A DNA stretch of 36,131 nt from a phage: NCBI GenBank assembly GCA_018175075.1, contig GCA_018175075.1_4100.3; one strand, given 5' to 3'. Position 1 is the stretch's first letter. The number at the start of each line of letters is the position of its first letter. The translations under genes were made by a program, and so were the position numbers. This document shows, piece by piece, positions 1-17,225 of the stretch. Below the pieces are notes generated by a model. It did no database searches, had not been told where the DNA came from, and saw only the letters and a program-made list of their open reading frames with translations.

Positions 1-51
1 AGGTAAGCTGTACTTTCATCAAATGACCCAACCACTGAGGTGTACTGATCG

Positions 52-303
52 ATGAATGCGATGAATATTGTGAATAACATCAGATTAGCAGAAAGATTTG
101 ATAGAATTGGGGAAGCACTGAGAAGATACGATAAAGAATATGGTCATTTGAGCTTTTCTATAGAAAAGAGATATGAACTTGAAGCAGAGTTTAAAATGCA
201 GAGTCTCTTAGGCACACAGTATCAAAACCAATATATTCAAACTTGGATTGATTGTTTAATCCAGACAATTTACGTAAGAAACATTAAATGCAAAATGAAA
301 TGA
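52..303 (+). CDS. hypothetical small protein, family A (LGTxxQ motif)
   Basis: Complete ORF; GAGGTG RBS-like sequence 8 nt upstream of ATG; motif SLLGTQYQNQYI. Confidence 0.6.
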   Translation: MNAMNIVNNIRLAERFDRIGEALRRYDKEYGHLSFSIEKRYELEAEFKMQSLLGTQYQNQYIQTWIDCLIQTIYVRNIKCKMK

Positions 304-548
304 TATACTTAACCTATAATGAATACGTCGAGAGATTAGTTCGTGCCAAGAGATATACCAATAAACGTCCAATTGACCTAAACCAAACCCCAGCAGAAAG
401 GAGTGCAGAAGTATTATTCCAATCACTACCATATCTTCTGGGAACTGATAGACAAGAGGAATATGTTGCACGTATGATTAGATATCTTAAAATCACTATT
501 AAGGAAAAAGTAAATGCAAATGCAAATGAAATACTTAACAGACGATGA
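288..548 (+). CDS. hypothetical small protein, family A
   Basis: Motif YLLGTDRQEEYV; also carries AEVLFQSL; alternative start ATG 300 overlaps upstream TGA (ATGA). Confidence 0.6.
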   Translation: MQNEMIYLTYNEYVERLVRAKRYTNKRPIDLNQTPAERSAEVLFQSLPYLLGTDRQEEYVARMIRYLKITIKEKVNANANEILNRR

Positions 549-771
549 GTTAAAAGAACGACTAATTAAATCCAGAAAACTTACAAATCAACTTCCAAAC
601 GACACAAACAAGTCACATGCCGAAAGGAGTGCAGAAGTTTTATACATTCAACTCATGTACTTTCTTGGTACTGACAGACAAGAGTATTACATTGAAAGTA
701 TGCTTCGATATCTTAAATTCTCTATAAAGGAAAAGATACATGCTCAAGAATTTAAAAATCCTAACAGTTAA
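514..771 (+). CDS. hypothetical small protein, family A
   Basis: Motif YFLGTDRQEYYI; close paralog of 288-548; start may be ATG 520 or 526. Confidence 0.6.
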   Translation: MQMQMKYLTDDELKERLIKSRKLTNQLPNDTNKSHAERSAEVLYIQLMYFLGTDRQEYYIESMLRYLKFSIKEKIHAQEFKNPNS

Positions 772-982
772 TGAATATCATAAGATTGTAATGAAAACTA
801 ATAGTGAAATTTCTAAAAAATCAAACCCAAAGTACATACTGGAACACACATTCGAAGAACGTCAATTAGCTCTAGTTGAAGCAAAACTTCTTGCACTCCT
901 AGGAACAAACTATCAAGAAGAATACATCAGAAAACTAATATACCTTTTAACTAAACATATAAGAAAAAGAAAAAATGCATGA
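740..982 (+). CDS. hypothetical small protein, family A
   Basis: Motif LLGTNYQEEYI; overlaps upstream gene end. Confidence 0.6.
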   Translation: MLKNLKILTVNEYHKIVMKTNSEISKKSNPKYILEHTFEERQLALVEAKLLALLGTNYQEEYIRKLIYLLTKHIRKRKNA

Positions 983-1209
983 AACACTTGACAGATGATG
1001 AACATGGGCTTATAGTAATGGATGTAATCAACATCGAATACAAAAAGTTGATACGCTACCGTTGTTATGAAGATAAGCAACTCGTTCTAGCAGAACAGAA
1101 GTTGTTTCGACTCTTAAACACAAACTTCCAAGCACAATACGAAGAATCGTATATGTACCTTTTGGCGAGGAAAGCAAAAAGAGATTATGAAAATTTTAAG
1201 CAAAGGTGA
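979..1209 (+). CDS. hypothetical small protein, family A (divergent)
   Basis: ATGA stop-start overlap; motif LLNTNFQAQYE. Confidence 0.55.
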   Translation: MKHLTDDEHGLIVMDVINIEYKKLIRYRCYEDKQLVLAEQKLFRLLNTNFQAQYEESYMYLLARKAKRDYENFKQR

Positions 1210-1402
1210 TTCAGTAATATTACTTATAGAGAGTTCAAGTAAATTCTTAAACATAACACTGTCTGATATAGATGAAGATGACAAAGAAGTACTGAGAGCA
1301 GATTTAAGAGTACTGTTACATATCGGAACAAACCTACAAGAAGAATATGTAGAGTGCTACATCAATGAACTTAAAGAATTAGTACTGAGAAAATGCAAAT
1401 GA
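1187..1402 (+). CDS. hypothetical small protein, family A
   Basis: Motif HIGTNLQEEYV. Confidence 0.6.
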   Translation: MKILSKGDSVILLIESSSKFLNITLSDIDEDDKEVLRADLRVLLHIGTNLQEEYVECYINELKELVLRKCK

Positions 1403-1587
1403 AAATCATTACCGATGCAGAATACCTAACAATCATAAATGGACTGTTTTTGAAGCTCTTCGTCATTAACACATCAGATATACCAGATATGGATAAAATT
1501 ATTAAGAGAAATGAAGTCTATGTTCTAGCTACCCTTGGAACGAACTATCAAGAACACGACATTAAATTAAACGAGCGATTGAACTAA
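1393..1587 (+). CDS. hypothetical small protein, family A
   Basis: Motif TLGTNYQEHDI. Confidence 0.55.
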   Translation: MQMKIITDAEYLTIINGLFLKLFVINTSDIPDMDKIIKRNEVYVLATLGTNYQEHDIKLNERLN

Positions 1588-1588
1588 A

Positions 1589-1804
1589 ATGCCAAAACCA
1601 CTAGGAACAGCAGAATACATTGAACTAATGGGATTACACTTCTCATCCTTTCAGAAACTTATGCGAGAATCAAAGAATGATTTAGAATATACCATCAGAG
1701 GTTCCGATTTAAGAATGCTTCTCACCCTAGACACAGATTCCCAAGAGCGATTTGTCAATGAGCATATTAGAGCACTTTTAATGGAAATTCAAAGTAAACT
1801 ATGA
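1589..1804 (+). CDS. hypothetical small protein, family A (divergent)
   Basis: Motif TLDTDSQERFV. Confidence 0.55.
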   Translation: MPKPLGTAEYIELMGLHFSSFQKLMRESKNDLEYTIRGSDLRMLLTLDTDSQERFVNEHIRALLMEIQSKL

Positions 1805-2016
1805 AGGTAATATCAAATCAAGAGTACTTGGCACTATTCAGGAAGAATAATCACAAATATATGGCACTTGATTCAAGAACTGATATAAGTGAACTTGAAA
1901 AAAATCTTTTGCGTTCAGATATGATAGTACTGACACTCTTAGGAACACAGCATCAAGAGAGAACTGTTAATTCACACATAGGGATTCTAATGCAGATAGT
2001 ACAGGAAAAGTTATGA
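1801..2016 (+). CDS. hypothetical small protein, family A
   Basis: ATGA overlap; motif LLGTQHQERTV. Confidence 0.6.
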   Translation: MKVISNQEYLALFRKNNHKYMALDSRTDISELEKNLLRSDMIVLTLLGTQHQERTVNSHIGILMQIVQEKL

Positions 2017-2234
2017 GAATCATAACACAACAAGATATTCTTAAGTTCACAAGGGTTCATGCATCTGAATTTGATGCTATATTATCAAAAAGTTACAACA
2101 ACCCTTATACAGAAGATGTACACTACAATGAATTATGGGTGTATATACTTTTAGGTACAGATCATCAAGAGCAAGCAGTACAGAAGTATTTGTTAGCTTT
2201 ACGTGATGCTACTGCTAATGGAGTACATGTTTAA
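2013..2234 (+). CDS. hypothetical small protein, family A
   Basis: ATGA overlap; motif LLGTDHQEQAV. Confidence 0.6.
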   Translation: MRIITQQDILKFTRVHASEFDAILSKSYNNPYTEDVHYNELWVYILLGTDHQEQAVQKYLLALRDATANGVHV

Positions 2235-2235
2235 T

Positions 2236-2478
2236 ATGAAAGTACTATCTGAATTAGAAATGTATCATAGATTTAATAAGTACTATCATTTACTTAAGCC
2301 TATACAGAGGATTAAATGTCCATTTGAAGAGAAACAGGTTTTAATCTATGAGCACAAGTTCTTTGTATCATTAGGTACAGATCAACAAGAGTACTATTTG
2401 ACGTTGTACTTGATTACATTAATAGATTTAATTTACTATAAAACCAAACAAGCTAATAAAGAGAAATATGAAAACTAA
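2236..2478 (+). CDS. hypothetical small protein, family A
   Basis: Motif SLGTDQQEYYL; start moved from track 2203 to first ATG after upstream TAA (2232-2234). Confidence 0.55.
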   Translation: MKVLSELEMYHRFNKYYHLLKPIQRIKCPFEEKQVLIYEHKFFVSLGTDQQEYYLTLYLITLIDLIYYKTKQANKEKYEN

Positions 2479-2812
2479 TATACAACTCAAGGTATATAAA
2501 TCATTTGAACATACATATATCAAAAGTAGTCTATGTAGAGATGTAATGGATTACAAGGGTAAGCCATTCACAATTACTTATGATTCTTATGTTGATGATT
2601 TATATATATCATTTGTTAATTACGAAAATAAAATATACAAGCACGTTGATATTAAAGATTTAAGTACTTTATCACCAGAGGAATACTTTCAGGAATCATT
2701 AGTATGGGATTTAGAGTTTCCTATGCCATTAGTACATAAGATGATAGTACTAATGAAAGAATCTAAACAGGAGCCTAATGGTGATTATGAAGAACACACA
2801 GTTGAGTATTAA
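2468..2812 (+). CDS. hypothetical protein, family B (FQxS motif)
   Basis: Motif EEYFQESLVWD; C-terminus ends VEY like gene 11848-12219. Confidence 0.65.
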   Translation: MKTNIQLKVYKSFEHTYIKSSLCRDVMDYKGKPFTITYDSYVDDLYISFVNYENKIYKHVDIKDLSTLSPEEYFQESLVWDLEFPMPLVHKMIVLMKESKQEPNGDYEEHTVEY

Positions 2813-3182
2813 AAGTACTGATAATATTAAGAGTTATACAAGCTCAAGTACTGTGACAATCGAAGTGAATTCTATTAATGCTGGTAATGCAGTAGATAAG
2901 TTCTTTATTGCTCAAGGGTACAGGAAAGATATTCATCAATATTGTTCAGTATATGGGGAGTACAATAGTACTGAAGATATAATTTATTGGTCAACACATC
3001 AAGATTATCTAACTAAAATTGGAGTCCCAGATGTTAGTACTTTATCTGAAGAAGAATACTTTCAGTACAGCTTAATATGTGATGTACCTATACCTTTAGG
3101 GTTAATCAAGGGTATACAGGAAGAGGTTCATAAGCTTAAATCCATGAGTAAAGGTACTTTCATTAGAACAGTGCAATACTAG
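2778..3182 (+). CDS. hypothetical protein, family B
   Basis: Motif EEEYFQYSLICD; alternative start ATG 2787. Confidence 0.65.
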   Translation: MVIMKNTQLSIKSTDNIKSYTSSSTVTIEVNSINAGNAVDKFFIAQGYRKDIHQYCSVYGEYNSTEDIIYWSTHQDYLTKIGVPDVSTLSEEEYFQYSLICDVPIPLGLIKGIQEEVHKLKSMSKGTFIRTVQY

Positions 3183-3241
3183 CTTGACAGTACTTTTCAT
3201 TACTGATATAGTACACTAACGTTAATCATAGGGTAAAAATT

Positions 3242-3487
3242 ATGTTAAATTTTTTAAATTTCCTTATCGTTTTGTGTATTGTTCTTGGGATTGCACCATT
3301 TGTATTGTATTTCATGGATTCAGATGAAATGCAGAAGATGAATTGTACAAGGACAGGACAGAGTAGAGAAGAGACGATTCTTATGCCTGTTACGGTTATT
3401 GTTAACAACATGCCCATTACAAACATGGTCCCTACCCTAACGACAACGTACCAGTACTCTTGTGCTGACGGAGAGAGGTGGAGATGA
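3242..3487 (+). CDS. small hydrophobic (putative membrane) protein
   Basis: Hydrophobic N-terminal stretch FLNFLIVLCIVLGIAPFVLYF; first ORF downstream of promoter at 3184. Confidence 0.5.
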   Translation: MLNFLNFLIVLCIVLGIAPFVLYFMDSDEMQKMNCTRTGQSREETILMPVTVIVNNMPITNMVPTLTTTYQYSCADGERWR

Positions 3488-3804
3488 AATTTAATATAGC
3501 AAAAACATCGAGTATATGTATTTTTGGTTATGCAGAAGAGTTAGGTGATATTGACATTCTTTTGTACAAAAAGGATGGTGTTATGCATTTCAAGTACCAG
3601 GATGAAGAGGCAGACAATTATCTTTTACCTAATTTAGTACAAATGCAGGAAGAGGAATTATTCCAGTACAGCTTAGTATACGACATTGATATTTGCACGA
3701 TGCCAGTACTAATTAGTATTCAAAAAGTGATGCTCGATATGTATGATAAGCTAATACAAGGTACATCAGGGAGAATCATTGAAATCGATATACAAGACAA
3801 TTAA
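3484..3804 (+). CDS. hypothetical protein, family B
   Basis: Motif EEELFQYSLVYD; GGAG RBS before ATG 3484 (track extends to GTG 3478). Confidence 0.65.
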   Translation: MKFNIAKTSSICIFGYAEELGDIDILLYKKDGVMHFKYQDEEADNYLLPNLVQMQEEELFQYSLVYDIDICTMPVLISIQKVMLDMYDKLIQGTSGRIIEIDIQDN

Positions 3805-3997
3805 TCAAGAATGGAAGACCCAAAAGTACAGGGAATTCAACAGGAATTTTACAAAAGATGCATTGAATTTAAAAACAACAGAGTTTGATATGTTTATTTT
3901 TCTTGGAACACGTTCACAAGAACAATTTGTTCATTATTATATAAATTCGTTGCGAACGGAGATAGTATGCAAAACACAGGGTATTATAAAAAGGTAA
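3779..3997 (+). CDS. hypothetical small protein, family A
   Basis: Motif FLGTRSQEQFV; apparent TTG start with GGGAGAA RBS, no in-frame ATG until codon 38. Confidence 0.5.
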   Translation: MKSIYKTINQEWKTQKYREFNRNFTKDALNLKTTEFDMFIFLGTRSQEQFVHYYINSLRTEIVCKTQGIIKR

Positions 3998-4233
3998 ACC
4001 AATATTTGTACGCTACAAAGTACAGGGATTTTTGTTTAAAGGGTGGTGATGAAGATTTTTCTTTGCGATTATCAGAATTTAATCTGTTATTTTATCTTGG
4101 TACAAAAGAACAAGAAGAAATGGCACAGAAATTTATCAAGCACCTTTTACAAAAAATTAATATGCAAATTTTGATGCTTAAGTTACAGAATGAGATAAAT
4201 GAATATGAATCCAGAAATAGTTCAGGATCTTAA
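3967..4233 (+). CDS. hypothetical small protein, family A
   Basis: Motif YLGTKEQEEMA. Confidence 0.6.
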   Translation: MQNTGYYKKVNQYLYATKYRDFCLKGGDEDFSLRLSEFNLLFYLGTKEQEEMAQKFIKHLLQKINMQILMLKLQNEINEYESRNSSGS

Positions 4234-4591
4234 AAAAGTAATATTTCTTTTGAATACCAGAAGTGAATTGTATACAGAGTTAAAAGAGATTAATGCATTT
4301 TATCAGAATTTTGTAATCCAAGAGTTCAGTGATTTAATTACAGATGCATTATTTGAATTCTCGGAGAAATACAAAGGAACAGAGTTCAGTGTTAAGAATG
4401 TTATTCGTCCAAGTACAAGGAAAATTATATTATCACATTTTACATTTGACAATAAAGATTTATTCAGTCATAATCCAAGTACAGCTTTATATTTTATTCC
4501 TGATTCAGACAAAAATCATCCTATTCATTACGGATGGATTTTGTCATATATAGTACAAGGAAAGGAGTATCCTATTAAATGGAAAGATTAG
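4199..4591 (+). CDS. hypothetical protein
   Basis: 130-aa ORF, neither family motif; ATG 4199. Confidence 0.5.
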   Translation: MNMNPEIVQDLKKVIFLLNTRSELYTELKEINAFYQNFVIQEFSDLITDALFEFSEKYKGTEFSVKNVIRPSTRKIILSHFTFDNKDLFSHNPSTALYFIPDSDKNHPIHYGWILSYIVQGKEYPIKWKD

Positions 4592-4739
4592 GGCGATTAG
4601 ATTATTACACAATTAATACAAATTATTTGTTGCGTAATATAAAATCCGATTACAAAATATGGATAAAGAACAGAGATAGCATGTGTTATGAATTTTATTT
4701 AGATTATGCTATCAAACGATTTTTAAGAGAAGAACATTA

Positions 4740-4943
4740 ATGCAAAAGATTAATACGATAACATTAAATGCATTACAGGATTCATTATTAGATAGTATTA
4801 AGATGTATTACAATATACATTTGAAGGGTGGTATTGATAATTACGATTATTATTTGAGTTTAATTACATTTGAGCACCTTTCAGTACAGGACAGGATTTT
4901 ACATCCTACAAATCCTAGGTATCCATCGATAGGTAAATTATGA
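4740..4943 (+). CDS. hypothetical protein
   Basis: 67-aa ORF after 148-bp gap; coupled (ATGA) to downstream gene. Confidence 0.45.
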   Translation: MQKINTITLNALQDSLLDSIKMYYNIHLKGGIDNYDYYLSLITFEHLSVQDRILHPTNPRYPSIGKL

Positions 4944-5488
4944 ATGAGATAGAGTTATTAGCACACAAGATAAGTACAATAATGCTTATCCTCAATAACA
5001 ACCATCCTATATCGCATATAGATGGAATCCTGAGTCAGAGGACAGGTGGTAGTTTATATTTGTCCATAAACGCAGATATCGCAAGGAAATACATTGATAT
5101 TGATGTTGAAATCGAATATGATACAACGGGGATTGTTGATGTAGGTGCATTAATCAGTTCAAATCCAGTATCAGCATCCCCATTGACCAAAGATGTTAGT
5201 ACAGGATTCGAAGGATATTTGTGGTACAATACCAATGATGATTATTTTATATATCAGCATTCCAATACAAATTATGATGAAGACAAATTTCAGTTCATAG
5301 ACCCTTATGATGAAGCTGAAGTATTTCAAAAATCATTAATCACAAAACCGCATGAGATGATGTATCTAATGTTATTCAGTACAATGCATTTGAATCCATT
5401 AATTAAAGGTTTAAAATTTTATATTCAATTAAATTTAGTCCATGTAGTTTATGATTTATTAATGCAAGGATATAGTTATGAAGTATAA
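4940..5488 (+). CDS. hypothetical protein, family B (divergent)
   Basis: Motif EAEVFQKSLITK. Confidence 0.6.
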   Translation: MNEIELLAHKISTIMLILNNNHPISHIDGILSQRTGGSLYLSINADIARKYIDIDVEIEYDTTGIVDVGALISSNPVSASPLTKDVSTGFEGYLWYNTNDDYFIYQHSNTNYDEDKFQFIDPYDEAEVFQKSLITKPHEMMYLMLFSTMHLNPLIKGLKFYIQLNLVHVVYDLLMQGYSYEV

Positions 5489-5789
5489 AATGATGTATAC
5501 CCCAGATATGATTTATGTTGAATTAGAAGATGATGACGATGGGTGGAATTTGATTTATTCAAGAAGTTCAGGTTGGTACATGGCACATTTAAATGATTCG
5601 ATAGTTACAGATTATTTTGTAGATTTCAATACATTATCCGATGAAGAATTGTTCCAACAGCAATTAGTGATTGACACGGGTGGTTATGATGTCTTATTAT
5701 TAAAAAAGATACAGAAAGCTGTTATTGATTTTAAGCCCATGATATGGCAAAGGAAATATTATGACCTCGAAGTACCGTACCAGCAATGA
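5478..5789 (+). CDS. hypothetical protein, family B
   Basis: Motif DEELFQQQLVID; AAGGA RBS. Confidence 0.65.
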   Translation: MKYKMMYTPDMIYVELEDDDDGWNLIYSRSSGWYMAHLNDSIVTDYFVDFNTLSDEELFQQQLVIDTGGYDVLLLKKIQKAVIDFKPMIWQRKYYDLEVPYQQ

Positions 5790-6327
5790 AATTCAGTACA
5801 CCTACGCTAATGCAATCCTTATGGGACAAAAGTTAGCTTGTATTGTTGCATCCTTATATAATGCCCAGAAATATCACAAGCGTCATTTCCACAAATGTAT
5901 TGGTATTATTCCATCGAAGTACAATACATATATTGCGTGCACGAGTCATTTTGATAAACGATTCAATACACCAGATATACCAAATGCCCGTAGTGTTATT
6001 GGTCTTTTGGATTTCGCACCTGGTGCTGTTATTGGAAAGAATGATTTAGAGTACGCATGGTATAATAAAAATTCCCCATTAGTAATGGTAACATATGATA
6101 AAGAAACGAACAAAACAATAGAGTACAATACATATAAATCAGAGGAAGAATTTTTCCAAGGTTCAATGCTTGTACCAGTGCGTTTGTTATTTTATAATGT
6201 CATAATGAGTACAGTACACAATAGTCCATTACACAAGAATCACAAAATTAATTTCAATTTTTGTGCTTATGCGATTGATGGTGTGTATGAGTGTTTAATG
6301 GAGGTATTGAGTTATGAAGCTGAATAA
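5761..6327 (+). CDS. hypothetical protein, family B
   Basis: Motif EEEFFQGSMLVP. Confidence 0.65.
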   Translation: MTSKYRTSNEIQYTYANAILMGQKLACIVASLYNAQKYHKRHFHKCIGIIPSKYNTYIACTSHFDKRFNTPDIPNARSVIGLLDFAPGAVIGKNDLEYAWYNKNSPLVMVTYDKETNKTIEYNTYKSEEEFFQGSMLVPVRLLFYNVIMSTVHNSPLHKNHKINFNFCAYAIDGVYECLMEVLSYEAE

Positions 6328-6655
6328 TACATTTGATATTAATAAGTTAAGAGAATGGTTTTATAGTATTGAAATTGAAGCCATCCCGTATCATAGATAT
6401 GAACAATATAATTTAACCAGTATTGATATCCGTGAGTTGTACGCGTATTATCAAAGTGCATTAGAGATGCATAAGATATTTTTGAGTACAGATTTTGTTC
6501 TAAATTACAATTTTGAGGAATTTAATAATTATAATTTAGTACAGAAATATGTAGTAGCAAAGTACATGTACCTTCAAGGAATTACAAGTATAGTTGAATT
6601 TAATACAGTTCTTGCTTTAGTTGAGGTAATTTTATGCAGTACATGTATGATTTAG
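6314..6655 (+). CDS. hypothetical protein
   Basis: 113-aa ORF; GGAGGT RBS; no clear family motif. Confidence 0.55.
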   Translation: MKLNNTFDINKLREWFYSIEIEAIPYHRYEQYNLTSIDIRELYAYYQSALEMHKIFLSTDFVLNYNFEEFNNYNLVQKYVVAKYMYLQGITSIVEFNTVLALVEVILCSTCMI

Positions 6656-7140
6656 AGTTCAGCTTAGATGCTGCATTTAAATATGTTCACAAGATAGAAA
6701 CAATATACAGTACATTATGTGCAATAAAATCAGTAACAGAAGAGCTTGATGTTGGTGAAAAATATCAGGTATGGAATAATACATTTTTAAATAAAGAACG
6801 TTGCTCTACGGGGTTTAATATTTTAACATTTAATCCCAGCAATTGTTACCCAGAGAAGCATGAACGTTATCCGAATGACGACATGTGGTTTGAGTACAAA
6901 GAAGATTGTGATATGTCGTTCATTGAAGTTCCTGATGATTTTAATGCACAAGATTTAACAGACGAGTGGTGGTTCCAGCAGAATTTAGTCCACGATGATA
7001 TTGATTTATTTTTTTATGTAGTATTTAAAATGCTTTATCACAACAATATAGTACAAGATAGTGTATTTTTTTCATGTCTATATATTGATGATTTGTACAA
7101 TGAAATTCAAATCAACATGCCCATAACGCCTGTATCGTAA
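6634..7140 (+). CDS. hypothetical protein, family B
   Basis: Motif DEWWFQQNLVHD; GAGGT RBS. Confidence 0.65.
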   Translation: MQYMYDLEFSLDAAFKYVHKIETIYSTLCAIKSVTEELDVGEKYQVWNNTFLNKERCSTGFNILTFNPSNCYPEKHERYPNDDMWFEYKEDCDMSFIEVPDDFNAQDLTDEWWFQQNLVHDDIDLFFYVVFKMLYHNNIVQDSVFFSCLYIDDLYNEIQINMPITPVS

Positions 7141-7155
7141 GATATGGGCTTTTTT
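7119..7155 (+). terminator. possible rho-independent terminator
   Basis: GCCCATA / TATGGGC 7-bp stem, 17-nt loop, then TTTTTT; overlaps stop codon of 6634-7140. Confidence 0.4.
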
Positions 7156-7165
7156 CGTTTTGGTA

Positions 7166-7194
7166 TTGACATAGAAGACCAAAGCTGTTATCAT
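7166..7194 (+). promoter_or_regulatory. sigma70-like promoter
   Basis: TTGACA (7166-7171), 17-bp spacer, TATCAT (7189-7194). Confidence 0.6.
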
Positions 7195-7222
7195 GTGTAT
7201 TCATTTTAAAGGAGAACATATA

Positions 7223-7735
7223 GTGAGTTTCATAATCCCAAGTACATACGAAGATGCATCAAGTGCAGTTCATAAGATTCATTATATTTTTAATTTAATT
7301 ATTAAATCTGCAAAAATTAAAATGTATGCACCTCTTGTGACAAATAATCGAAATGAAGAAATTTTTATTAGCACAGACAAAATTATTTTTCCATATTTCA
7401 ATGAAGATAGATTGTGGTTCATACATTTAGCTGCATTACAAAAATATAAGATGTCAATTCGTAATAATTTGGTTATACCGTTATATCATCCCGATATTGG
7501 AGAGGATGAGTATTTTCAGTACAGCACAGTACACCGCCATGAAGATATCTTTGCTGCTATGCTTATTGCTAAATTGAACACCGTTGATTTGGAGCAGTAC
7601 AAATACAATAATAAATCATGTAAGATCATAATCCCTGCATTCATAGCTCTTTATGATTATGTGGTGCATAACATAAAAGATGATACATATGCTTTCAATG
7701 AAGAGTATTTGGATTTTTTTAAGGAGAACATATGA
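7223..7735 (+). CDS. hypothetical protein, family B
   Basis: GTG start 8 nt after AAAGGAGAA RBS (track extends to ATG 7193 inside promoter); motif EDEYFQYSTVHR. Confidence 0.6.
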   Translation: MSFIIPSTYEDASSAVHKIHYIFNLIIKSAKIKMYAPLVTNNRNEEIFISTDKIIFPYFNEDRLWFIHLAALQKYKMSIRNNLVIPLYHPDIGEDEYFQYSTVHRHEDIFAAMLIAKLNTVDLEQYKYNNKSCKIIIPAFIALYDYVVHNIKDDTYAFNEEYLDFFKENI

Positions 7736-8271
7736 GCAGTACAACAGTATCAAAAGTACAGAAAGCAATGTCATTCAATGAAATTGGTACATTTAAAGAT
7801 AAGATCATTGATTGCCTTGAATACATGATTTGTAGTAATATCGAAAGTATCGAGATATTTAACAAGACAAATCGCTCTTACCATATGATGTACATTGCAA
7901 ACAATAATGGTATCATTCCATTTATTTCGGATAGTACAATATGGTACGCATGTGATACGAAAAAAACCACAATAGGTTTACATTTATTTGAGACACATTA
8001 TGATCTAATTATTCCTGAACATTGTATGCAAGAAGAAGAATATTTTCAAATGCAATGTATACATTCACCATTAGTGTTGTTTAGTTTATATATTATACCT
8101 TATATCACCAAATGTGTTCATGAGAATAAAGCTCCGTGGAATCATGAATTTGTATCGTTGAAGTTATTGTATAATGTATTAGTAGAATATTATGATTACA
8201 GGCACAATGGTACAATCAGTGATGTATGGGATTTTGAATCGCTAAGGGTGAAAACATACACAGGTGAATGA
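7732..8271 (+). CDS. hypothetical protein, family B
   Basis: AAGGAGAA RBS; ATGA overlap; motif EEEYFQMQCIHS. Confidence 0.7.
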   Translation: MSSTTVSKVQKAMSFNEIGTFKDKIIDCLEYMICSNIESIEIFNKTNRSYHMMYIANNNGIIPFISDSTIWYACDTKKTTIGLHLFETHYDLIIPEHCMQEEEYFQMQCIHSPLVLFSLYIIPYITKCVHENKAPWNHEFVSLKLLYNVLVEYYDYRHNGTISDVWDFESLRVKTYTGE

Positions 8272-8887
8272 TATGACCAGAATTAAAATGTATGATTTGA
8301 TGCAGTACAGTAAAATTGCCATTCCAGTGCTTAATAAAGTGCTGGATGCATTCATTGCCAAATACCCTGAGAATTCAGTGTTATGTATTCCATTTAGTGT
8401 TCCAGATAAAGATGATATATTCCAAGTGAATGTCAGTACACGTGGTATTACATTGCAGCAGAAATATATGGATACGGAATATTATGGAATAAAGTTGGAT
8501 TCAGTACAGGGTTCTAAATCAGCCTATGATTTTTTTGTTCCTAATAACATCGAGTCATGGGAAACAAACATTTCAAAGAAAGATGAAAATGATGTTCCTA
8601 TTAGTGGTGTGTTCAACAATAAAGTTTTTTATTATTACGAAACCGACAAATTCCCTGAAGAGTTATATTACAATTCAGAAATGAATGAAGATGTAGATGC
8701 ATTCATGTTTCAATTATCTTTAGTACATGATATCATTGATGTTCAAGAGTTAAGAGCAGAAATCAATTTAGCTAAAGAGTTATCGGACATGCTGCCACCG
8801 TTTAGTATGCTTTTTTGTGAAGGTGGTTATTTTTCAAAAGAAGTGTTTGAACATTTCGTAGATGTTGTAAAAGGGTTGGATATATAG
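8264..8887 (+). CDS. hypothetical protein, family B
   Basis: Motif DAFMFQLSLVHD; alternative start ATG 8273. Confidence 0.65.
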   Translation: MNDMTRIKMYDLMQYSKIAIPVLNKVLDAFIAKYPENSVLCIPFSVPDKDDIFQVNVSTRGITLQQKYMDTEYYGIKLDSVQGSKSAYDFFVPNNIESWETNISKKDENDVPISGVFNNKVFYYYETDKFPEELYYNSEMNEDVDAFMFQLSLVHDIIDVQELRAEINLAKELSDMLPPFSMLFCEGGYFSKEVFEHFVDVVKGLDI

Positions 8888-8888
8888 T

Positions 8889-9083
8889 ATGCTTACAGTT
8901 GATGTTAAACAAAAATACCGTAAGTTTGATTGGTTCACCGACAGCTTCCAGCTTGAATTATTACATTTGAATATCTGTGAAACATTATGTGCAGAAACAC
9001 AAGATGAATTTGATGATAGAGTGATGAACATAGTAATGCTTTCTTGCTTTAAACATTTTGGTTATTTTTTCGGACAGAATTGA
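8889..9083 (+). CDS. hypothetical protein
   Basis: 64-aa ORF filling gap between family B genes. Confidence 0.45.
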   Translation: MLTVDVKQKYRKFDWFTDSFQLELLHLNICETLCAETQDEFDDRVMNIVMLSCFKHFGYFFGQN

Positions 9084-9091
9084 GGTAAAAA

Positions 9092-9607
9092 ATGCATCAA
9101 CACAAGCATCATTCATATGATTTTGCAATTAACATTATGAAGTTCATTCGAGCGTTGGAGGATGGGAAGCTTAGTCATAAGTACACCAAAGTAGGTGACA
9201 ATTGGTTCAGAAATGATGATGAGTTCAGAAGTCATAAGATTGTTTACAGCAATAATTACAGTGCCAATTACCTACAAGATGTAGTGATGTGTTTTGAATA
9301 CGTGTTGCAGTTCAGGGGTTCAATCCAGGATGAGTTGATGGAGCACATGTACATCCGATACCTTCCAATGCTCAAAGATGAAAATGTATTATTAAATTCA
9401 ATATACCAACGAGTTCGTGAAATTGAGTGCAGGGATATATTAGATACAGAAGAATCGTATTTCCAGCAATCCCTGATTTATGCACCTGATTTATTACAGG
9501 TACATAATTTGTTTAATACATTACGTCAAAACATCAGTACAGACATATTTTTGTCATTATCGAATTATGATACATTTGTCAAAGATTTAGAGGAAATAGG
9601 TTTATGA
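9092..9607 (+). CDS. hypothetical protein, family B
   Basis: Motif EESYFQQSLIYA; GAGGT RBS. Confidence 0.65.
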   Translation: MHQHKHHSYDFAINIMKFIRALEDGKLSHKYTKVGDNWFRNDDEFRSHKIVYSNNYSANYLQDVVMCFEYVLQFRGSIQDELMEHMYIRYLPMLKDENVLLNSIYQRVREIECRDILDTEESYFQQSLIYAPDLLQVHNLFNTLRQNISTDIFLSLSNYDTFVKDLEEIGL

Positions 9608-9948
9608 GTCGATTTTCGGTTTATATAGTAAACGTCAGTAAAGATGGTAGTTTAATTGAATTTGATGTAGTTGATAACAATGATAATTCATATGGTATTA
9701 AGGTACAGGACAATGATGTACAGTTCAGTACAAGGACAAATTTTGAGAATCCAGTCCAAGTTCCGAATTTCATAGAAGATGAAGCTGCACGATTCCAATA
9801 CGAAACGGCATATGACAATGTACATATGCATATTATTATGCAAACGAGTTTAGTTCAATTAGTTCCTTTGTTCAGACAAAATATATATGTACATGAAGTG
9901 TCGATTAATGGCATTCAAAGTTCCGTTTTGTTCGGTACAAATATGTAA
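9604..9948 (+). CDS. hypothetical protein, family B (divergent)
   Basis: ATGA overlap; motif AARFQYETAYD. Confidence 0.55.
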   Translation: MSRFSVYIVNVSKDGSLIEFDVVDNNDNSYGIKVQDNDVQFSTRTNFENPVQVPNFIEDEAARFQYETAYDNVHMHIIMQTSLVQLVPLFRQNIYVHEVSINGIQSSVLFGTNM

Positions 9949-9958
9949 GGAAAGTACA

Positions 9959-10510
9959 ATGAGTTCAATGAGTTTATTAGATACATTAGAAAAAGACAGA
10001 AGTGCAATTAAGCGTTTAAAAGAGCAAGTACAAAAGATTGTATACAACGTTGATAAGTTTGAAGTCCCAGGAAGATTTGGTGATATTTCCCATACGGAGA
10101 TCAAATCCCTTAAGTCAGATTTGTTGATTAAAAATAAAAATGGGTTGATTTTAGTTTTGAGTTCAGATATGATGGGGGCAACACATAGTTATAATGCAGT
10201 ATCGGTGCGTTCAGAGTGTGAAGGTATATATCTATCACAGGGTTTCAATAGCGAGACACAGGTTTGTTTTTGTGATGCAGTACATGACCCTATGAAGTTC
10301 ACGAGAAGTGAAGCCCAAGCGTTATTAGAGCTATCAGACGAGAGTTTGTTTCAGTACAGTACAATGTATGACAATGATAAGCTTCGTTGTATGTACGCTG
10401 TAAAGCATTATACACAGGAGTTTTCTGGATTTGCATACCTTTTAGTTAGAACCAATACCAGATATATTGATATGTTAGAAGATTACATCGATAAAGTTGT
10501 TAATGTATGA
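9959..10510 (+). CDS. hypothetical protein, family B
   Basis: AAGGAAAG RBS before ATG 9959 (track extends to 9887); motif ESLFQYSTMYD. Confidence 0.6.
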   Translation: MSSMSLLDTLEKDRSAIKRLKEQVQKIVYNVDKFEVPGRFGDISHTEIKSLKSDLLIKNKNGLILVLSSDMMGATHSYNAVSVRSECEGIYLSQGFNSETQVCFCDAVHDPMKFTRSEAQALLELSDESLFQYSTMYDNDKLRCMYAVKHYTQEFSGFAYLLVRTNTRYIDMLEDYIDKVVNV

Positions 10511-10532
10511 TGTATGATTATGGGATGGGATA

Positions 10533-10709
10533 ATGCTGATGAAAGAGTTATTTGAAGATCAGTTCAATACATATGTGGATAATATTCTTTATTCCAGCCG
10601 TGCTAGTCAACGAGGAAATCGTGCTTACAATATAGATTACCTATTAGTGGTGCTGAGTTCACAGTACACCAATGCGGTACAAAGGGTTTATTATGAAAAG
10701 TGCAAGTAA
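10533..10709 (+). CDS. hypothetical small protein (58 aa)
   Basis: ATG ORF below track size cutoff, found by manual translation; overlaps next ORF. Confidence 0.3.
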   Translation: MLMKELFEDQFNTYVDNILYSSRASQRGNRAYNIDYLLVVLSSQYTNAVQRVYYEKCK

Positions 10710-10902
10710 TAGTGATATTGCAAAGGAGAAGTTCAAGTGCAGTTTAGATTTTGGGTTAAATGATTTTCTGACATGCACAATGTACAGGAATGATGATTAT
10801 GAGCAATCCGTAATTTCGTTGCACAGATATTTCGAAATAATTTACGCAAGATATCTTAGAAGGTTAGAGGGAATAGGGGATTGGAATTATGATTACGTTT
10901 GA
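10693..10902 (+). CDS. hypothetical protein
   Basis: Track ORF 10672-10902; internal ATG 10693 has AAAGGG RBS-like sequence; start uncertain. Confidence 0.45.
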   Translation: MKSASNSDIAKEKFKCSLDFGLNDFLTCTMYRNDDYEQSVISLHRYFEIIYARYLRRLEGIGDWNYDYV

Positions 10903-11113
10903 AGAGCCGGAAGTGGCATATTGCTTTAGTGTGAAAGGTTTTGAATTCATGATGGATTCTATTTTGAAGGATACATATTTGGTTCAGATTGCAGTTCCAG
11001 ATAATACAGATAATGCATTACAGCGAGTATTGAATATATACGAGAGGACGAGTCGAAGGCTTTGTGCAATGAAAAGGATTGAAGAAATCAAGCTTTCTAT
11101 GCTGAATAAATAG
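10889..11113 (+). CDS. hypothetical protein
   Basis: 74-aa ORF; GGGGA upstream of ATG. Confidence 0.5.
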   Translation: MITFEEPEVAYCFSVKGFEFMMDSILKDTYLVQIAVPDNTDNALQRVLNIYERTSRRLCAMKRIEEIKLSMLNK

Positions 11114-11138
11114 AGACGTTTCATTTTGACAGGCCGCT

Positions 11139-11147
11139 GGGGGGGGG
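11139..11147. repeat. G9 homopolymer tract
   Basis: Nine consecutive G in intergenic region, directly after a TTGACA hexamer (11126-11131) and before an A7 run. Confidence 0.9.
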
Positions 11148-11312
11148 TCAAAAAAATTTCCGCTGAAAAACATGCTAAGGTATATGTTTAATATAAAGTT
11201 TTATATTGTGTTTTTCAGAGTACAGTTCATGTTTCTTGAAACAAAAAATACCCCGCCGCCGAACGTTCTCCTTATATTGGAGTTTACCTTATTAATTATA
11301 GTAGAGATTAAG

Positions 11313-11690
11313 ATGGAAATAAAATATAATGAATTTTGTGCAAGGACATGGATGTACACTGGTGAGTTAGTTACGCACTCTAACTTATACAAGGGTGATT
11401 TAAACTACGCTAGGGACAAGATTTTAAAGTACTGGAATGCTGACTTTTATTTGATGGATTTTAGTACTGGGTTTAGGGGTAAAGCAACCGAGATGTTGGA
11501 CTATACAGTACTTGATGATGCTGCACTGTTTCAGGCGGCATTAGTATTTGATAAGAAGTACATCTGTACATTAGAAGAGATGATTGAATTACAGCGTAGA
11601 ATTAAATGTATTCACAGAGAATGTATAGACATCTGGTGCAGTACTGGTGAAGATGATTTTTGTAATCATTTCAATCTAGGGGAAGAGTGA
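11313..11690 (+). CDS. hypothetical protein, family B (KGD subfamily)
   Basis: Motif DAALFQAALVFDKKY; start set at ATG 11313 by length match to paralogs at 12219 and 12572 (track extends to 11172). Confidence 0.6.
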   Translation: MEIKYNEFCARTWMYTGELVTHSNLYKGDLNYARDKILKYWNADFYLMDFSTGFRGKATEMLDYTVLDDAALFQAALVFDKKYICTLEEMIELQRRIKCIHRECIDIWCSTGEDDFCNHFNLGEE

Positions 11691-11775
11691 TGGAATTTGA
11701 TTTTTTAATATCAGTACATTCTTTTAAGCACAGTTATCAGTACTTTTGTAATTTAAACAAAGGTGATTTGATTAT
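11686..11775. repeat. direct repeat, copy 1 (~85 bp)
   Basis: Near-identical to 12215-12304 (about 3 mismatches); includes TGATG junction and 5' end of a family B gene. Confidence 0.8.
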
Positions 11776-11851
11776 GGATACAGATACAGAGGCTGTATAC
11801 AGTTCTAATATTCTGTACAAATTCAGTACTAATCTGAAGGAGATTTTATGA
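11690..11851 (+). pseudogene. truncated paralog fragment (53-aa ORF)
   Basis: First ~28 codons near-identical to N-terminus of gene 12219-12575, then diverges and stops; TGATG coupling at both ends. Confidence 0.4.
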
Positions 11852-12219
11852 AAAAAGAAATTAGAATTCAATTCGGTATGAGGAAAAAAGAGGTCATCTG
11901 TACACTGAATCATGCGGTCGTGGAAAGCCTTGGTGGTGCATTACAAAAATTCTCCCATTTTGTTCTTGTACTATATGAAAATGGGTCTTTTAAAATCTTC
12001 ACATATGATGATTCAAAAAATTACCGTAATGATTTTGTAAATCTGACAGTACTGTCAGAAGAGGAATTCTTTCAGGAAAGTACTGTCTGGAATTTACCAG
12101 GAGCACCAATTGAATACGTCCGTGCTACACAGGCAGAAATGATCAAAGTAATGCAGAACTATCCAGAAGATTATATGACTAAGTTTCCTGAATCTATTTA
12201 TGTAGAGGTTGAGTACTGA
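11848..12219 (+). CDS. hypothetical protein, family B
   Basis: AAGGAG RBS; motif EEEFFQESTVWN; C-terminus VEY like 2468-2812. Confidence 0.7.
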   Translation: MKKEIRIQFGMRKKEVICTLNHAVVESLGGALQKFSHFVLVLYENGSFKIFTYDDSKNYRNDFVNLTVLSEEEFFQESTVWNLPGAPIEYVRATQAEMIKVMQNYPEDYMTKFPESIYVEVEY

Positions 12220-12304
12220 TGGAATTTGATTTTTTAATATCAGTACATACTTTCAAGCACAGTTATCAGTACTTTTGTAATTTAAACAAAGGTGATTTAA
12301 TGCA
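12215..12304. repeat. direct repeat, copy 2 (~85 bp)
   Basis: Partner of 11686-11775. Confidence 0.8.
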
Positions 12305-12575
12305 CAGTGCAAATGAGTATATTCATTACACTCAGGGTAAATTTACATTCATTGATTACAGTTCATTACAGTATCCACACCAAGATATGCCGGACTATAC
12401 ATTAATGGATACCGCAGAACTATTCCAAGAATCATTAGTATTTGATAAGAAGTACTTGTGTACATTTGAAGAAGTTATTGCAATACAAAATGAAATGAAA
12501 GAGTATGCTGCTTTGCATAAACCCAATGCAAGTATTAATCAAGAATACAAATTCAATTTAGGAATTCAAGAATGA
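12219..12575 (+). CDS. hypothetical protein, family B (KGD subfamily)
   Basis: Motif TAELFQESLVFDKKY. Confidence 0.65.
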   Translation: MEFDFLISVHTFKHSYQYFCNLNKGDLMHSANEYIHYTQGKFTFIDYSSLQYPHQDMPDYTLMDTAELFQESLVFDKKYLCTFEEVIAIQNEMKEYAALHKPNASINQEYKFNLGIQE

Positions 12576-12931: not shown

Positions 12932-12940
12932 GATTATAAA

Positions 12941-13432: not shown

Positions 13433-13433
13433 A

Positions 13434-16327: not shown

Positions 16328-16860
16328 TGAAAGTTAACATCAATGACTTTGATGCATTACAAGATTTATCAAAAAAGATTCGCACCATTGTACCAGTACT
16401 CAAAAAATGCAGTACTGGTTTAATCGATCCTAGTACTGTTGTTAATGAGAAGTACAATTTTCATTATGTATTACAGGGTACTGGGGCATTCCAGAAGTGT
16501 GAGGTGCGTGAGACACACGTAATTGATACATCATTGTTTTCTATTGGTGCACCTGTGTCGAATAATACTATTTTCCTAGACAACGCTGGAAATATTCAAC
16601 AATTAACATTTAAGAAAAGGAAAAAGAACAATAACATTGGTGTGTATGCGATGAAGTGGGGTCAACCTGATTTGAAGCGTGAAATTCACATCCCTAAGTA
16701 CAATTACAATGCATTTGACGAACAGTGTTTTCAACTATCGTGTACTGACCCTGACTATGCTATCATTCAGTTCTATATGGAATTGCAGATTGCATTTAAC
16801 AGTAATTTGTATATTAACTTATTGGCGATGAACATCGATGAAGTATTCAAAAACATTTAA
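16327..16860 (+). CDS. hypothetical protein, family B (divergent)
   Basis: Motif DEQCFQLSCTDP; ATG 16327 overlaps upstream TGA (track begins GTG 16324). Confidence 0.55.
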   Translation: MKVNINDFDALQDLSKKIRTIVPVLKKCSTGLIDPSTVVNEKYNFHYVLQGTGAFQKCEVRETHVIDTSLFSIGAPVSNNTIFLDNAGNIQQLTFKKRKKNNNIGVYAMKWGQPDLKREIHIPKYNYNAFDEQCFQLSCTDPDYAIIQFYMELQIAFNSNLYINLLAMNIDEVFKNI

Positions 16861-17056
16861 TCGAATTGAATACATGAGAACTGTGAGTGCAGTGTGGGAC
16901 ATATGGTTCACTACTAAACCAAAAATGGATTACCATGACTTTAAGCTCTTGTTCTTCGTTGGCTCTAACAAACAGGATGTTGCAATGAAGGGTTATATTC
17001 AGCACTTACAGGAACTAATCCAGAAGAGAATATATGAAAATAATAGACCAAAATGA
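16838..17056 (+). CDS. hypothetical small protein, family A
   Basis: Motif FVGSNKQDVAMKGYI; alternative start ATG 16874. Confidence 0.55.
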   Translation: MKYSKTFNRIEYMRTVSAVWDIWFTTKPKMDYHDFKLLFFVGSNKQDVAMKGYIQHLQELIQKRIYENNRPK

Positions 17057-17225
17057 TATTGCTAAACTATTCAATATATATTCTACTAGAATGATGCAAA
17101 CAGACTCATATAGTACTGAATTCAAAGAGTTGAAAGTCCTGATGTACTTGGGAACCCAATATCAGGAACAAGTTATTTTGGAATATATTAATTCGCTGAA
17201 GAAGGATATCCGTTATGTACGATGA
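17034..17225 (+). CDS. hypothetical small protein, family A
   Basis: Motif YLGTQYQEQVILEYI. Confidence 0.6.
   Translation: MKIIDQNDIAKLFNIYSTRMMQTDSYSTEFKELKVLMYLGTQYQEQVILEYINSLKKDIRYVR

Follow-up and report, generated by a model that had tools for sequence, protein, structure and literature searches.

A tandem array of small paralogous genes

Positions 52-2478 of the window (the whole stretch of 36,131 nucleotides that was analysed) hold a tandem array of a single small paralogous phage family, hereafter family A, whose 11 ORFs lie head to tail on the + strand and, taken as longest ORFs, encode 64-91 aa. With Escherichia phage SP27 the window shares 97.6% identity, in keeping with the phage origin proposed in an earlier note that was drawn up from the letters alone, and its phage is an Asteriusvirus, a PBECO4/121Q/SP27-like jumbo coliphage of about 350 kb. 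All 15 members counted in that note were recovered, 11 in the main array, two at 3779-4233 and two at 16838-17225, and the array does run on upstream of the window as it had supposed: positions 2-55 code for the last 17 residues of another copy, whose translation, GKLYFHQMTQPLRCTDR followed by the stop, is the C-terminus of the SP27 copy at L001 7792-8055 and whose stop overlaps the next ATG as ATGA. In the Logan contig ERR3500718_266, which equals the window over 11,717 nt (0 mismatches), 16 further family A copies lie upstream; in total, the window phage has 27 copies in the main array, which forms one gap-free run, and 31 in its genome. The members found in the window are given below with their E-values against phrog_4148, an entry of PHROGs v4, and against an independent HMM made from 15 SP27 copies, all of which lie outside the window.

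2..55, + strand: 3' end of the preceding family A copy, last 17 codons and stop, cut by the window edge
52..303, + strand: copy 1, 83 aa, motif LLGTQYQN; phrog_4148 E=6e-8, independent HMM E=1.8e-9
288..548, + strand: copy 2, 86 aa, or 82 aa with an ATGA overlap from the conserved Met at 300; phrog_4148 E=8e-18
514..771, + strand: copy 3, 85 aa, conserved Met at 526; independent HMM E=1e-13, full length
740..982, + strand: copy 4, 80 aa; phrog_4148 E=6e-12, independent HMM E=2e-12
979..1209, + strand: copy 5, 76 aa, variant motif LLNTNFQA; independent HMM E=1.4e-6, the weakest of the eleven
1187..1402, + strand: copy 6, 71 aa; phrog_4148 E=5e-22, independent HMM E=7e-16
1393..1587, + strand: copy 7, truncated, 64 aa; HMM match at positions 1-56 only
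1589..1804, + strand: copy 8, 71 aa, motif TLDTDSQE; ORF, matched by phrog_4148 and the independent HMM
1801..2016, + strand: copy 9, 71 aa, the copy whose structure was predicted; phrog_4148 E=1e-19
2013..2234, + strand: copy 10, 73 aa; ORF, matched by phrog_4148 and the independent HMM
2203..2478, + strand: copy 11, 91 aa from GTG 2203, or 80 aa from the conserved Met at 2236; segment 2236-2475 against phrog_4148 E=4e-21
3779..3997, + strand: copy 12, 72 aa; phrog_4148 E=7e-9, independent HMM E=2e-9
3967..4233, + strand: copy 13, 88 aa with a C-terminal extension; phrog_4148 E=1.6e-3, linked to other copies by BLASTP
16838..17056, + strand: copy 14, 72 aa, of which the C-terminal half alone matches; HMM E=2e-7, independent HMM E=1.4e-6, BLASTP link
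17034..17225, + strand: copy 15, 63 aa, motif YLGTQYQE; HMM E=1e-12, independent HMM E=1.4e-11

The family HMM matches copy 13 at E=1e-19, but the copy is itself part of that model, and the independent HMM misses it. Copy 7 has lost its last helix through a 16-nt deletion relative to SP27, as seen in the DNA alignment; the same truncated allele occurs in Logan contig L023, and full-length orthologues of 73 aa in L021 and L022. All but two of the 27 main-array copies have intact reading frames. The coupling of successive genes through ATGA overlaps, which the earlier note had assumed throughout the array, is seen at five of the ten junctions when the family-conserved Met is taken as start, the others having overlaps of 23-32 nt (three) or a 1-nt gap (two). 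Three genes of a second family, B, and a small hydrophobic ORF lie between the main array and copy 12. Family A has 15 members in the window and family B at least 27, the two together making up 41 of the 86 ORFs called there; the window holds no tRNA genes.

The L-G-T-x-x-Q-E motif by which family A had originally been noticed is only partly as described. The motif region is present in 11 of 11 array copies and its T and Q are invariant, but the strict pattern is broken in several of them, with N for E in copy 1, L-N-T..Q-A in copy 5, H-I-G-T in copy 6 and L-D-T in copy 8. A relaxed form of it has 18 matches in the + frames of the window and none in the - frames (mean 0.57, maximum 3 in shuffled windows); four of the 18, at 9512, 20653, 24639 and 35392, are degenerate chance occurrences unrelated to family A. 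Conservation is not confined to this short motif but extends along the entire domain of about 70 residues. The independent HMM recovers 14 of the 15 window members at E 1e-6 to 7e-16, mostly over their full length; in 384 six-frame segments it has no further match, up to E=10. Profile matches extend over the full length and are confined to the + strand and to the frames of the ORFs. In an alignment of 116 members, G48 is found in 106, T49 in 112, Q52 in 115 and L63 in 109, position 40 is E or D in 108, and most remaining columns have an entropy of 3.4-4.0 bits. The copies share only 15-28% identity with each other and their pI spans 4.4 to 9.8. The family A ORFs are genuine protein-coding genes of one family, and that family is distinct from family B as the earlier note had held, kinship between the two being ruled out by an hhalign probability of 0.2%.

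Predicted fold and selection

The AlphaFold2 (AF2) model of copy 9, computed from an alignment of window sequences and search hits, has a pLDDT of 95.6 and a pTM of 0.78, with helices at residues 6-15, 17-24, 31-45 and 52-70 and a beta-bridge from residue 2 to T49. The BFVD models of the 121Q and UB copies, which were predicted independently, superpose at TM-scores of 0.74-0.93, and a fold search of BFVD returned matches limited to family A itself. Structure comparison did not reveal a helix-turn-helix, that is a tri-helical arrangement with a short recognition helix. The family A product is thus predicted to be a soluble four-helix domain of about 70 residues, in which the N-terminal M-K-x-L-T strand is modelled as pairing with the L-G-T loop. 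The T of the motif probably caps the N-terminus of the last helix and, judging from where the two lie in the sequence, a buried polar lock is likely to link the invariant Q with the conserved E40. All copies keep the hydrophobic core and this putative Q/E40 lock, and almost all other positions vary freely. The near-invariance of T and Q could instead mark a functional site shared by the copies and not a structural lock.

Family A genes are under purifying selection. When the window was compared with SP27, PBECO4, 121Q and Ecwhy_1, pooled dN/dS was 0.31-0.41 in frame and 0.53-1.28 in the other two frames. Over 19-25 orthologue pairs, the ratio rose from 0.22 at positions conserved across the family to 0.38-0.48 where the family varies, which indicates that each copy's own residues are maintained too. 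No positive selection was detected overall in these pairs, dN/dS being below 1 even at variable positions. Copy 10 compared with its orthologues shows about nine nonsynonymous changes to one synonymous, in small numbers.

Distribution, copy number and genome position

The earlier note could not recognise the family, nor could the libraries searched: no significant match was obtained in Pfam, NCBIfam, PADLOC, PDB sequences or PDB folds. The sole library match is phrog_4148, annotated 'unknown function', along with phrog_28039 weakly. All ten copies tested match phrog_4148, eight of them at E 7e-9 to 5e-22, and six of these eight strong matches span approximately positions 1-73 of 74; it is the same family, but as recorded a sequence cluster without fold, genomic arrangement, copy number or function. 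In Pfam, family A gives sub-threshold noise alone (E 0.035 or worse), and none of 26 proteins searched (10 family A, 10 other window ORFs and 6 upstream SP27 ORFs) scored above threshold. NCBIfam gave nothing above noise, with one stray match among 32 members (E=0.0023), and PADLOC no homology to its defence models, with scattered single matches at E 0.0013 or worse. Csm2 and prefoldin, which appeared in a profile search of PDB sequences, were set aside as noise (E=2-4).

Among 1.84 billion representative proteins, the family comprises 91 clusters in all, and the members that were traced belong to RaK2-like jumbo phages or to metagenome contigs; of the 10 most divergent clusters, one holds a protein of E. 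coli phage JNE01 and the rest come from metagenome contigs. Complete E. coli RefSeq genomes gave no match. Klebsiella phage RaK2 has at least 13 members within 40 kb, scattered as ones, twos and threes and not gathered in one operon. Scanning IMG/VR with a 15-base degenerate DNA pattern gave 10 contigs, with true members only in 121Q and RaK2; tblastn with single members was too insensitive for mapping the family, P0143 matching phage Turkey5 alone. The domain also occurs fused to other modules, in a 269-aa protein of phages UB and EC.P1 and in ORF362 and ORF372 of RaK2. As far as can be seen, we are dealing with a lineage-specific expansion restricted to RaK2-like jumbo phages. Family A goes unmentioned in the papers on Sharanji, fEgEco12 and phAPEC6, and the RaK2 paper, which says no more than that about 10% of RaK2 proteins are paralogues, names none of the RaK2 member ORFs that were tested.

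The earlier note had suggested checking whether copy number differs between related phages, and it does: across the window phage and seven relatives, the main array varies from about 18 to 29 copies, with about 18 in Turkey5, 23 in 121Q, 26 in SP27, 27 in UB and in the window phage, 28 in Ecwhy_1 and G17, and 29 in PBECO4. Adjacent homologues, confinement to one lineage and differing copy number together are those of a tandem lineage-specific paralogue expansion. Partial copies are present in several genomes. Identity is mosaic, neighbouring array genes being 77% and 100% identical to the same relative, and contigs that have one identical copy in common differ in the genes upstream of that copy. 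Recent duplication or gene conversion was considered and rejected, as only short DNA stretches remain 61-73% identical between copies; the largest inter-copy DNA repeat family is 51 nt, around the motif. Since the copies are old and diverged and share short DNA repeats only, the array is not a recent amplification.

The terminal repeat of G17, 20,668 bp long, holds perfect 12/12 sigma-70 promoters, and 98 nt separate its inner edge from the first array gene, which lies downstream in the same orientation. A TTGACT-16-TAAAAT site is found 31-58 nt upstream of the first conserved array ATG. Promoter-like sites in and around the array do not exceed their frequency in shuffled sequences, internal promoters and terminators within it are not above chance, and the G17 annotation places no terminator inside it. 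With promoter counts at chance, it is the position of the array, together with the analogy of PA5oct and CBB, that speaks for early expression. RNA-seq of PA5oct, a related phage, identified its terminal-repeat genes as the early genes (PMC7318152), and in the RaK2-like phage CBB a block of short ORFs with RpoD-like promoters was proposed as an early host-takeover region (PMC5259590); no Asteriusvirus transcriptome was found in the literature. The virion proteome of phAPEC6 (62 proteins) includes none from gp440-500, the range that holds the array and in which gp470c is a member; this absence is weak evidence, because small proteins easily escape virion mass spectrometry.

Possible roles of the array

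The explanation that we favour, tentatively and with a probability of roughly 45%, is that the array encodes small binder proteins that have expanded in this one lineage, are made early, stay out of the virion and act on host or defence targets, where we infer the timing, the binding and the targets. The array would be one long operon beginning beside the terminal repeat and transcribed early by host RNA polymerase, and its products would remain in the infected cell and not enter the virion. The copies would be diversified small binders, each adapted to a target of its own in the host or its defences, and duplication, loss and recombination between co-circulating phages would remodel the copy set. 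Two points speak against such a binder arsenal: an arms race would often show positive selection, and known anti-defence loci usually hold unrelated small proteins, normally mixing unrelated folds as far as known, not 30 of one fold. Like these loci, family A is small, probably early, not in the virion as far as the proteome suggests, and hypervariable between close relatives; it differs from them in using one fold about 30 times and in having no homology to the PADLOC defence models.

One may also imagine, although we find it very doubtful, that the copies constitute a phage-encoded adaptor library, in which a common face would dock onto one host hub and variable helix surfaces would recruit or block different targets. 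The conserved face would then be made of the N-terminal strand, L-G-T-x-x-Q-E and E40, and a protease, RNA polymerase or the ribosome would be candidate hubs. A shared binding site is compatible with the data because T49 (112/116) and Q52 (115/116) are more invariant than most core positions, and an adaptor role would fit a domain that is naturally fused to other modules in UB, EC.P1 and RaK2. If true, bacterial viruses would here have an equivalent of the ankyrin/PRANC or BTB-Kelch expansions of poxviruses, and many host defence or stress proteins might be neutralised at once.

Other explanations must be weighed against the binder arsenal. It is unlikely, in our opinion, that the copies are nucleic-acid-binding regulators (helix-turn-helix-like factors, antiterminators or nucleoid proteins) recognising different sites, with the helix, G-T turn and helix segment contacting DNA or RNA. 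The inter-helix L-G-T-x-x-Q bears a superficial resemblance to the 'LG[VI]S..T' turn of helix-turn-helix proteins, and about half of the copies are basic (pI 8.7-9.8). Moreover, the roughly 35 zinc ribbon copies of Bacillus phage G were proposed to be transcription factors or DNA-binding proteins (PMC7824862). Family A, for its part, carries no nucleic-acid-binding signature and is found in a different host lineage from phage G. That the copies assemble into one hetero-oligomer or polymer, or are multiplied for the sake of gene dosage, with overlaps setting fixed proportions, is in our view quite improbable. Its appeal comes from 27 genes without intergenic gaps, half of whose junctions are ATGA, and without annotated internal terminators, an organisation that would give co-transcription and coupled translation, as well as from a conserved core and motif that could be a shared interface. 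Copies that are just 15-28% identical, however, a copy number of about 18 to 29 and the tolerance of truncated copies are hard to fit to a stoichiometric complex, and the RaK2 family is dispersed and not in one operon; simple dosage amplification is ruled out because the copies have diverged.

We consider it equally improbable that the array serves phage-phage competition (superinfection exclusion or interference with co-infecting relatives) instead of host manipulation. Mosaic, cassette-like replacement between close co-circulating phages would fit kin discrimination, and the reported persistence of Asteriusvirus in E. coli isolates, with 189 genomes inside bacterial assemblies (PMC12768965), would favour it. 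Yet the proteins have no membrane or DNA-entry features, GRAVY being mostly negative and the longest hydrophobic run, in helix 3, measuring about 10 residues, less than a membrane span requires, and they resemble no known exclusion protein in the libraries searched; the present data cannot separate competition from the binder arsenal. The idea that we find hardest to credit is that the array is evolutionary debris, functionless drifting duplicates that the jumbo capsid's tolerance of spare DNA has kept. A dN/dS of 0.3-0.45 is relaxed compared with what is expected of core genes, truncated or partial copies occur and copy loss is frequent. Against this, dN/dS lies clearly under 1, with its minimum in the annotated frame, more than 100 diverged sequences from two phage genera retain the full-length domain architecture, the fold is predicted with very high confidence, and 25 of the 27 main-array copies have kept their reading frames.

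Similar multigene families or 'genomic accordions' are familiar from large eukaryotic DNA viruses, such as MGF110/360/505 of African swine fever virus, the K3L amplification of poxviruses and their ankyrin/PRANC genes. Family A has in common with them near-terminal paralogue arrays, a copy number that varies between isolates, and a conserved scaffold with variable surfaces; it differs by the domain of its hosts, by having no sequence or fold relationship with them, and in that its copies are old and diverged. Among phages, SPO1 and T5 have early genes in their terminal repeats and, as far as known, their early blocks, like those of PA5oct and CBB, are largely made up of unrelated genes with individual promoters. 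Family A is unlike those blocks in being a single-family gap-free run that starts 98 nt outside the repeat. It is like PA5oct (PMC7318152) and CBB ORFs 390-546 (PMC5259590) in its dozens of small, uncharacterised one-strand ORFs at or beside a long terminal repeat and in the sigma-70-type promoters of the terminal-repeat region. The zinc ribbon expansion of the Bacillus jumbo phage G, described by Iyer et al. 2021 (PMC7824862), likewise consists of one small domain in about 35 copies with a guessed function, against about 30 here; unlike the zinc ribbon, family A is a four-helix domain with 0-3 cysteines and no cysteine/histidine ligands.

In phAPEC6, 83% of genes are without known function (PMC7247149), and the share exceeds 80% in such 350-kb coliphages. 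Family A now offers a workable entry, with about 30 copies per genome, a compact fold predicted with confidence and a fixed place beside the terminal repeat. Should the copies be early effectors with different targets, they would amount to a ready-made library of small binders of E. coli proteins, of use in finding host vulnerabilities or new anti-defence activities, and would help to explain the host range of phages developed against pathogenic E. coli. Were the array dispensable, it would inform us on how much non-essential DNA a jumbo capsid carries. Natural variants with different copy sets and truncated copies exist, and the 189 Asteriusvirus genomes from bacterial assemblies (PMC12768965) would permit a birth-and-death analysis of the family.

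Members of the array and their constraint

The window, with a GC content of ~32% and almost all ORFs on the + strand, opens within a tandem array of small genes, family A (~70-residue paralogues with an LGTxxQE motif, copies numbered 1-15 in the window). Our analyses establish it as a family of small four-helix proteins without recognisable relatives, specific to its lineage and expanded in tandem, which is kept by selection while its members turn over through duplication, loss and recombination. ORF calling confirmed the coordinates of the eleven consecutive genes that an earlier note had read from the sequence; its total of 15 members was likewise recovered. The motif proposed there holds for T and Q, which are invariant in the eleven ORFs, but G is replaced in two copies and E in two; likewise, the ATGA coupling claimed throughout is seen at five of ten junctions only, the rest being overlaps of 23-32 nt or a 1-nt gap.

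Family A and family B in the window
2-55: final 17 residues of one more family A copy
52-2478: eleven consecutive family A genes
3779-3997: further family A member
3967-4233: further family A member
16838-17056: further family A member
17034-17225: further family A member
2468-2812, 2778-3182, 3484-3804, 4940-5488, 11848-16327, 17215-21863: family B examples

A relaxed motif gave 18 matches in + frames, four of them due to chance, and none in - frames, against a mean of 0.57 in shuffled sequence. So as to avoid circularity, an independent profile was built from 15 copies of phage SP27 located outside the window. With this profile, 14 of the 15 members in the window were detected, at E-values of 1e-6 to 7e-16 and for the most part along all 71 positions; the 384 six-frame segments gave no other match, even at E=10.

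When the window copies are compared with four relatives, pooled dN/dS ranges from 0.31 to 0.41 in frame and from 0.53 to 1.28 in the other frames; over 19-25 orthologue pairs (SP27, 121Q, Ecwhy_1) it is 0.22 at family-conserved and 0.38-0.48 at family-variable positions. These values indicate that the genes are translated and maintained, copy-specific residues included. The constraint is weaker than we would expect for core genes, and the dN/dS comparisons of family A gave no overall signal of positive selection. The copy at 2013-2234 carries ~9 nonsynonymous changes and one synonymous change against its SP27, PBECO4 and 121Q orthologues. On these small numbers, from non-independent comparisons, selection on that single copy may be relaxed or positive. 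Copy 7 (1393-1587) has lost its last helix through a 16-nt deletion relative to SP27 (L001 9393-9614); the truncated allele recurs at 5476-5664 of L023, an independent Logan assembly of apparently the same phage, and full-length 73-aa versions are present in two other contigs.

Fold, relatives and turnover

The alignment used for structure prediction (A2) joined the window copies with database relatives. The AlphaFold2 model (mean pLDDT 95.6) has helices at residues 6-15, 17-24, 31-45 and 52-70 and a beta-bridge joining residue 2 and T49, and BFVD models of other copies, which are independent predictions, superpose with TM-scores of 0.74-0.93. Among 116 diverse members, M1, L4, E8, Y9, L13, V36, E40, L43, L47, G48, T49, Q52, E53, V56, Y59, I60, L63, I67 and K70 are conserved and the remaining columns are mostly near random; conservation thus extends across the whole domain, and a restriction to the short motif, which the earlier note had named as refuting its family, is not seen. 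Hydrophobic residues are spaced i, i+3/4, i+7, in keeping with a single buried face on each helix, and E40 shares the helix 3 face with core residues. We infer that G48 forms the turn, that T49 caps helix 4, and that Q52 and E40 connect to the N-terminal strand through a buried polar link. The proteins are hydrophilic, with pI values from 4.4 to 9.8.

In agreement with the earlier note, to which the family was not recognisable, the sole named match is the PHROG phrog_4148, of 'unknown function', and hhalign shows no relationship to family B. The latter comprises proteins of 100-190 aa with an EEYFQxSL motif whose F-Q is invariant; BLASTP single linkage assigns at least 27 window members to it, within 2468-21863. 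Of the 86 ORFs called, 41 belong to one or other of the two families. A word-index profile search yielded 169 proteins, and all of the 120 matches listed are at least 56% identical to a few of the paralogues; when 1.84 billion representative proteins were searched exhaustively with a profile, only 91 clusters emerged, and of the ten most divergent clusters examined one holds a protein of E. coli phage JNE01, the others coming from metagenome contigs. In IMG/VR, scanned with a degenerate DNA pattern, true members turned up in 121Q and RaK2 only. A 40-kb stretch of RaK2 (Klebsiella, Alcyoneusvirus) carries at least 13 members, scattered in small groups of one to three as opposed to a single long array; two of its domains are embedded in larger ORFs, ORF362 (121 aa) and ORF372 (115 aa), at L006 13443-13850 and 17126-17476. 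A 269-aa protein in UB and EC.P1, a natural domain fusion, combines an N-terminal family A domain with a ~200-aa module in common with RaK2 ORF380 (40% identity for UB, L019 9001-9810, AXC36995.1); in UB it sits where the window has a small hydrophobic ORF.

The suspicion that the array continues upstream of the window proved correct. The Logan contig ERR3500718_266 (L023) is identical to the window across 11,717 nt and reaches 4,077 nt further upstream, where it adds 16 copies, which brings the main array of this phage to 27 (two partial) and its genome total to 31. Copy number does vary between relatives, from ~18 to 29.

Copies in the main array of related phages
Turkey5: ~18
121Q: 23
SP27: 26
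UB: 27
Ecwhy_1: 28
G17: 28 and fragments
PBECO4: 29

Adjacent genes can show 77% and 100% identity to one single relative, and neighbouring cassettes differ among contigs that have one 100% identical copy in common; the array is therefore a recombination mosaic. DNA similarity between copies is limited to short stretches around the motif (61-73% identical), and judged by their DNA the copies are old.

Genomic position and possible role

Window 1-6000 is matched over its full length by Escherichia phage SP27 at 97.6% identity. The matching phage records number 36 and represent Escherichia and Salmonella phages of 310-383 kb; all those whose taxonomy was checked, a subset, belong to Asteriusvirus, of which 189 genomes have been reported from bacterial assemblies (PMC12768965), and the window is itself probably a phage contig within such an assembly. 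The annotation 'hypothetical protein' applies to all genes that the matches cover. The two ends of the G17 record, derived from read coverage (PMC6563267), form a 20,668-bp perfect direct repeat (L017 12151-32818 = L018 1-20668). Only 98 nt separate its inner boundary from the first family A gene, which lies downstream and is transcribed away from it, so that unique sequence beyond the repeat has the array as its first unit; no family A members were found in the G17 repeat itself. The repeat holds dozens of small genes with gaps between them, some containing annotated terminators; the array is gap-free and lacks annotated terminators, an arrangement suggestive of a single long operon. The array's first conserved start is preceded, 31-58 nt upstream, by a TTGACT-16-TAAAAT site; promoter-like sites occur no more often than expected by chance. 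In PA5oct, the early genes by RNA-seq are those of the terminal repeat (PMC7318152), and in CBB a block of short ORFs with RpoD-like promoters was proposed as an early host-takeover region (PMC5259590); no Asteriusvirus transcriptome was found in the literature. None of the 62 proteins of the phAPEC6 virion proteome comes from the array's part of the genome. From the position next to the repeat, the operon-like layout, the analogy with PA5oct and CBB and the absence from the phAPEC6 virion list, early and intracellular expression of family A seems likely, albeit unproven.

It is tempting to hypothesize that family A is a diversified set of early, non-virion binders aimed at host or defence targets, given its conserved scaffold and variable surface, its wide charge range, its adjacency to the terminal repeat and its hypervariability between close relatives. 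We hold this reading tentatively, at roughly 45%, and rank each alternative below it. Nucleic-acid-binding regulators are an unlikely option, and slightly less probable still, on an equal footing, are subunits of a common assembly or an effect of gene dosage, on the one hand, and a service in competition between phages, on the other. Debris without function is scarcely credible. The proteins are already known insofar as databases list them as hypothetical and PHROGs has clustered them, and earlier mention of paralogy among RaK2-like phages is in general terms only; we found no description of the family's size, arrangement, fold, distribution or position in the searchable literature. The phenomenon itself is familiar, the ~35 zinc ribbons of phage G being a comparable expansion (PMC7824862).

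Elements around the terminal repeat

The G17 repeat boundary corresponds to ~L001 4621 (SP27) and L023 592; L023 begins only ~590 nt outside this position, which may reflect the terminal repeat. Two perfect 12/12 sigma-70 promoters (TTGACA-16-TATAAT) are found on the + strand at L001 1316-1343 and 2840-2867, both in intergenic gaps of the terminal-repeat region, where a rough base-composition estimate gives a chance expectation of ~0.01 per 5 kb. An identical 28-nt hairpin, AAAGGGATTGACTCCGGTCAGTCCCTTT, then GCTATTATAT, is repeated between terminal-repeat genes in five phages (L001 882-919 and 3138-3175; L017 13608, 16360 and 19629; also L002, L003 and L005) and is absent from the window. Annotated as terminators in G17, these sites also read TTGACT-17-TATTAT with an extended TG, and the element may serve as terminator and promoter in one cassette. 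Within the window, a TTGACA-17-TATAGT site with extended TG (3184-3212) lies in the one non-coding gap of appreciable size in the array's vicinity; just downstream, an 81-aa ORF (3242-3487) with a strongly hydrophobic N-terminus (MLNFLNFLIVLCIVLGIAPFVLYF...) possibly encodes a small membrane protein, and the SP27 annotation has an opposite-strand 66-aa ORF here. A 194-aa protein of the terminal repeat, ~4 kb upstream of the array (L001 286-870; L005 5742-6326), has a weak protein-kinase match below threshold (Pfam E=0.004) and is annotated as a serine/threonine kinase in Turkey5; there its gene adjoins others annotated as TraR/DksA zinc finger, acetyltransferase and transcriptional regulator, and together they are candidate host-takeover genes.
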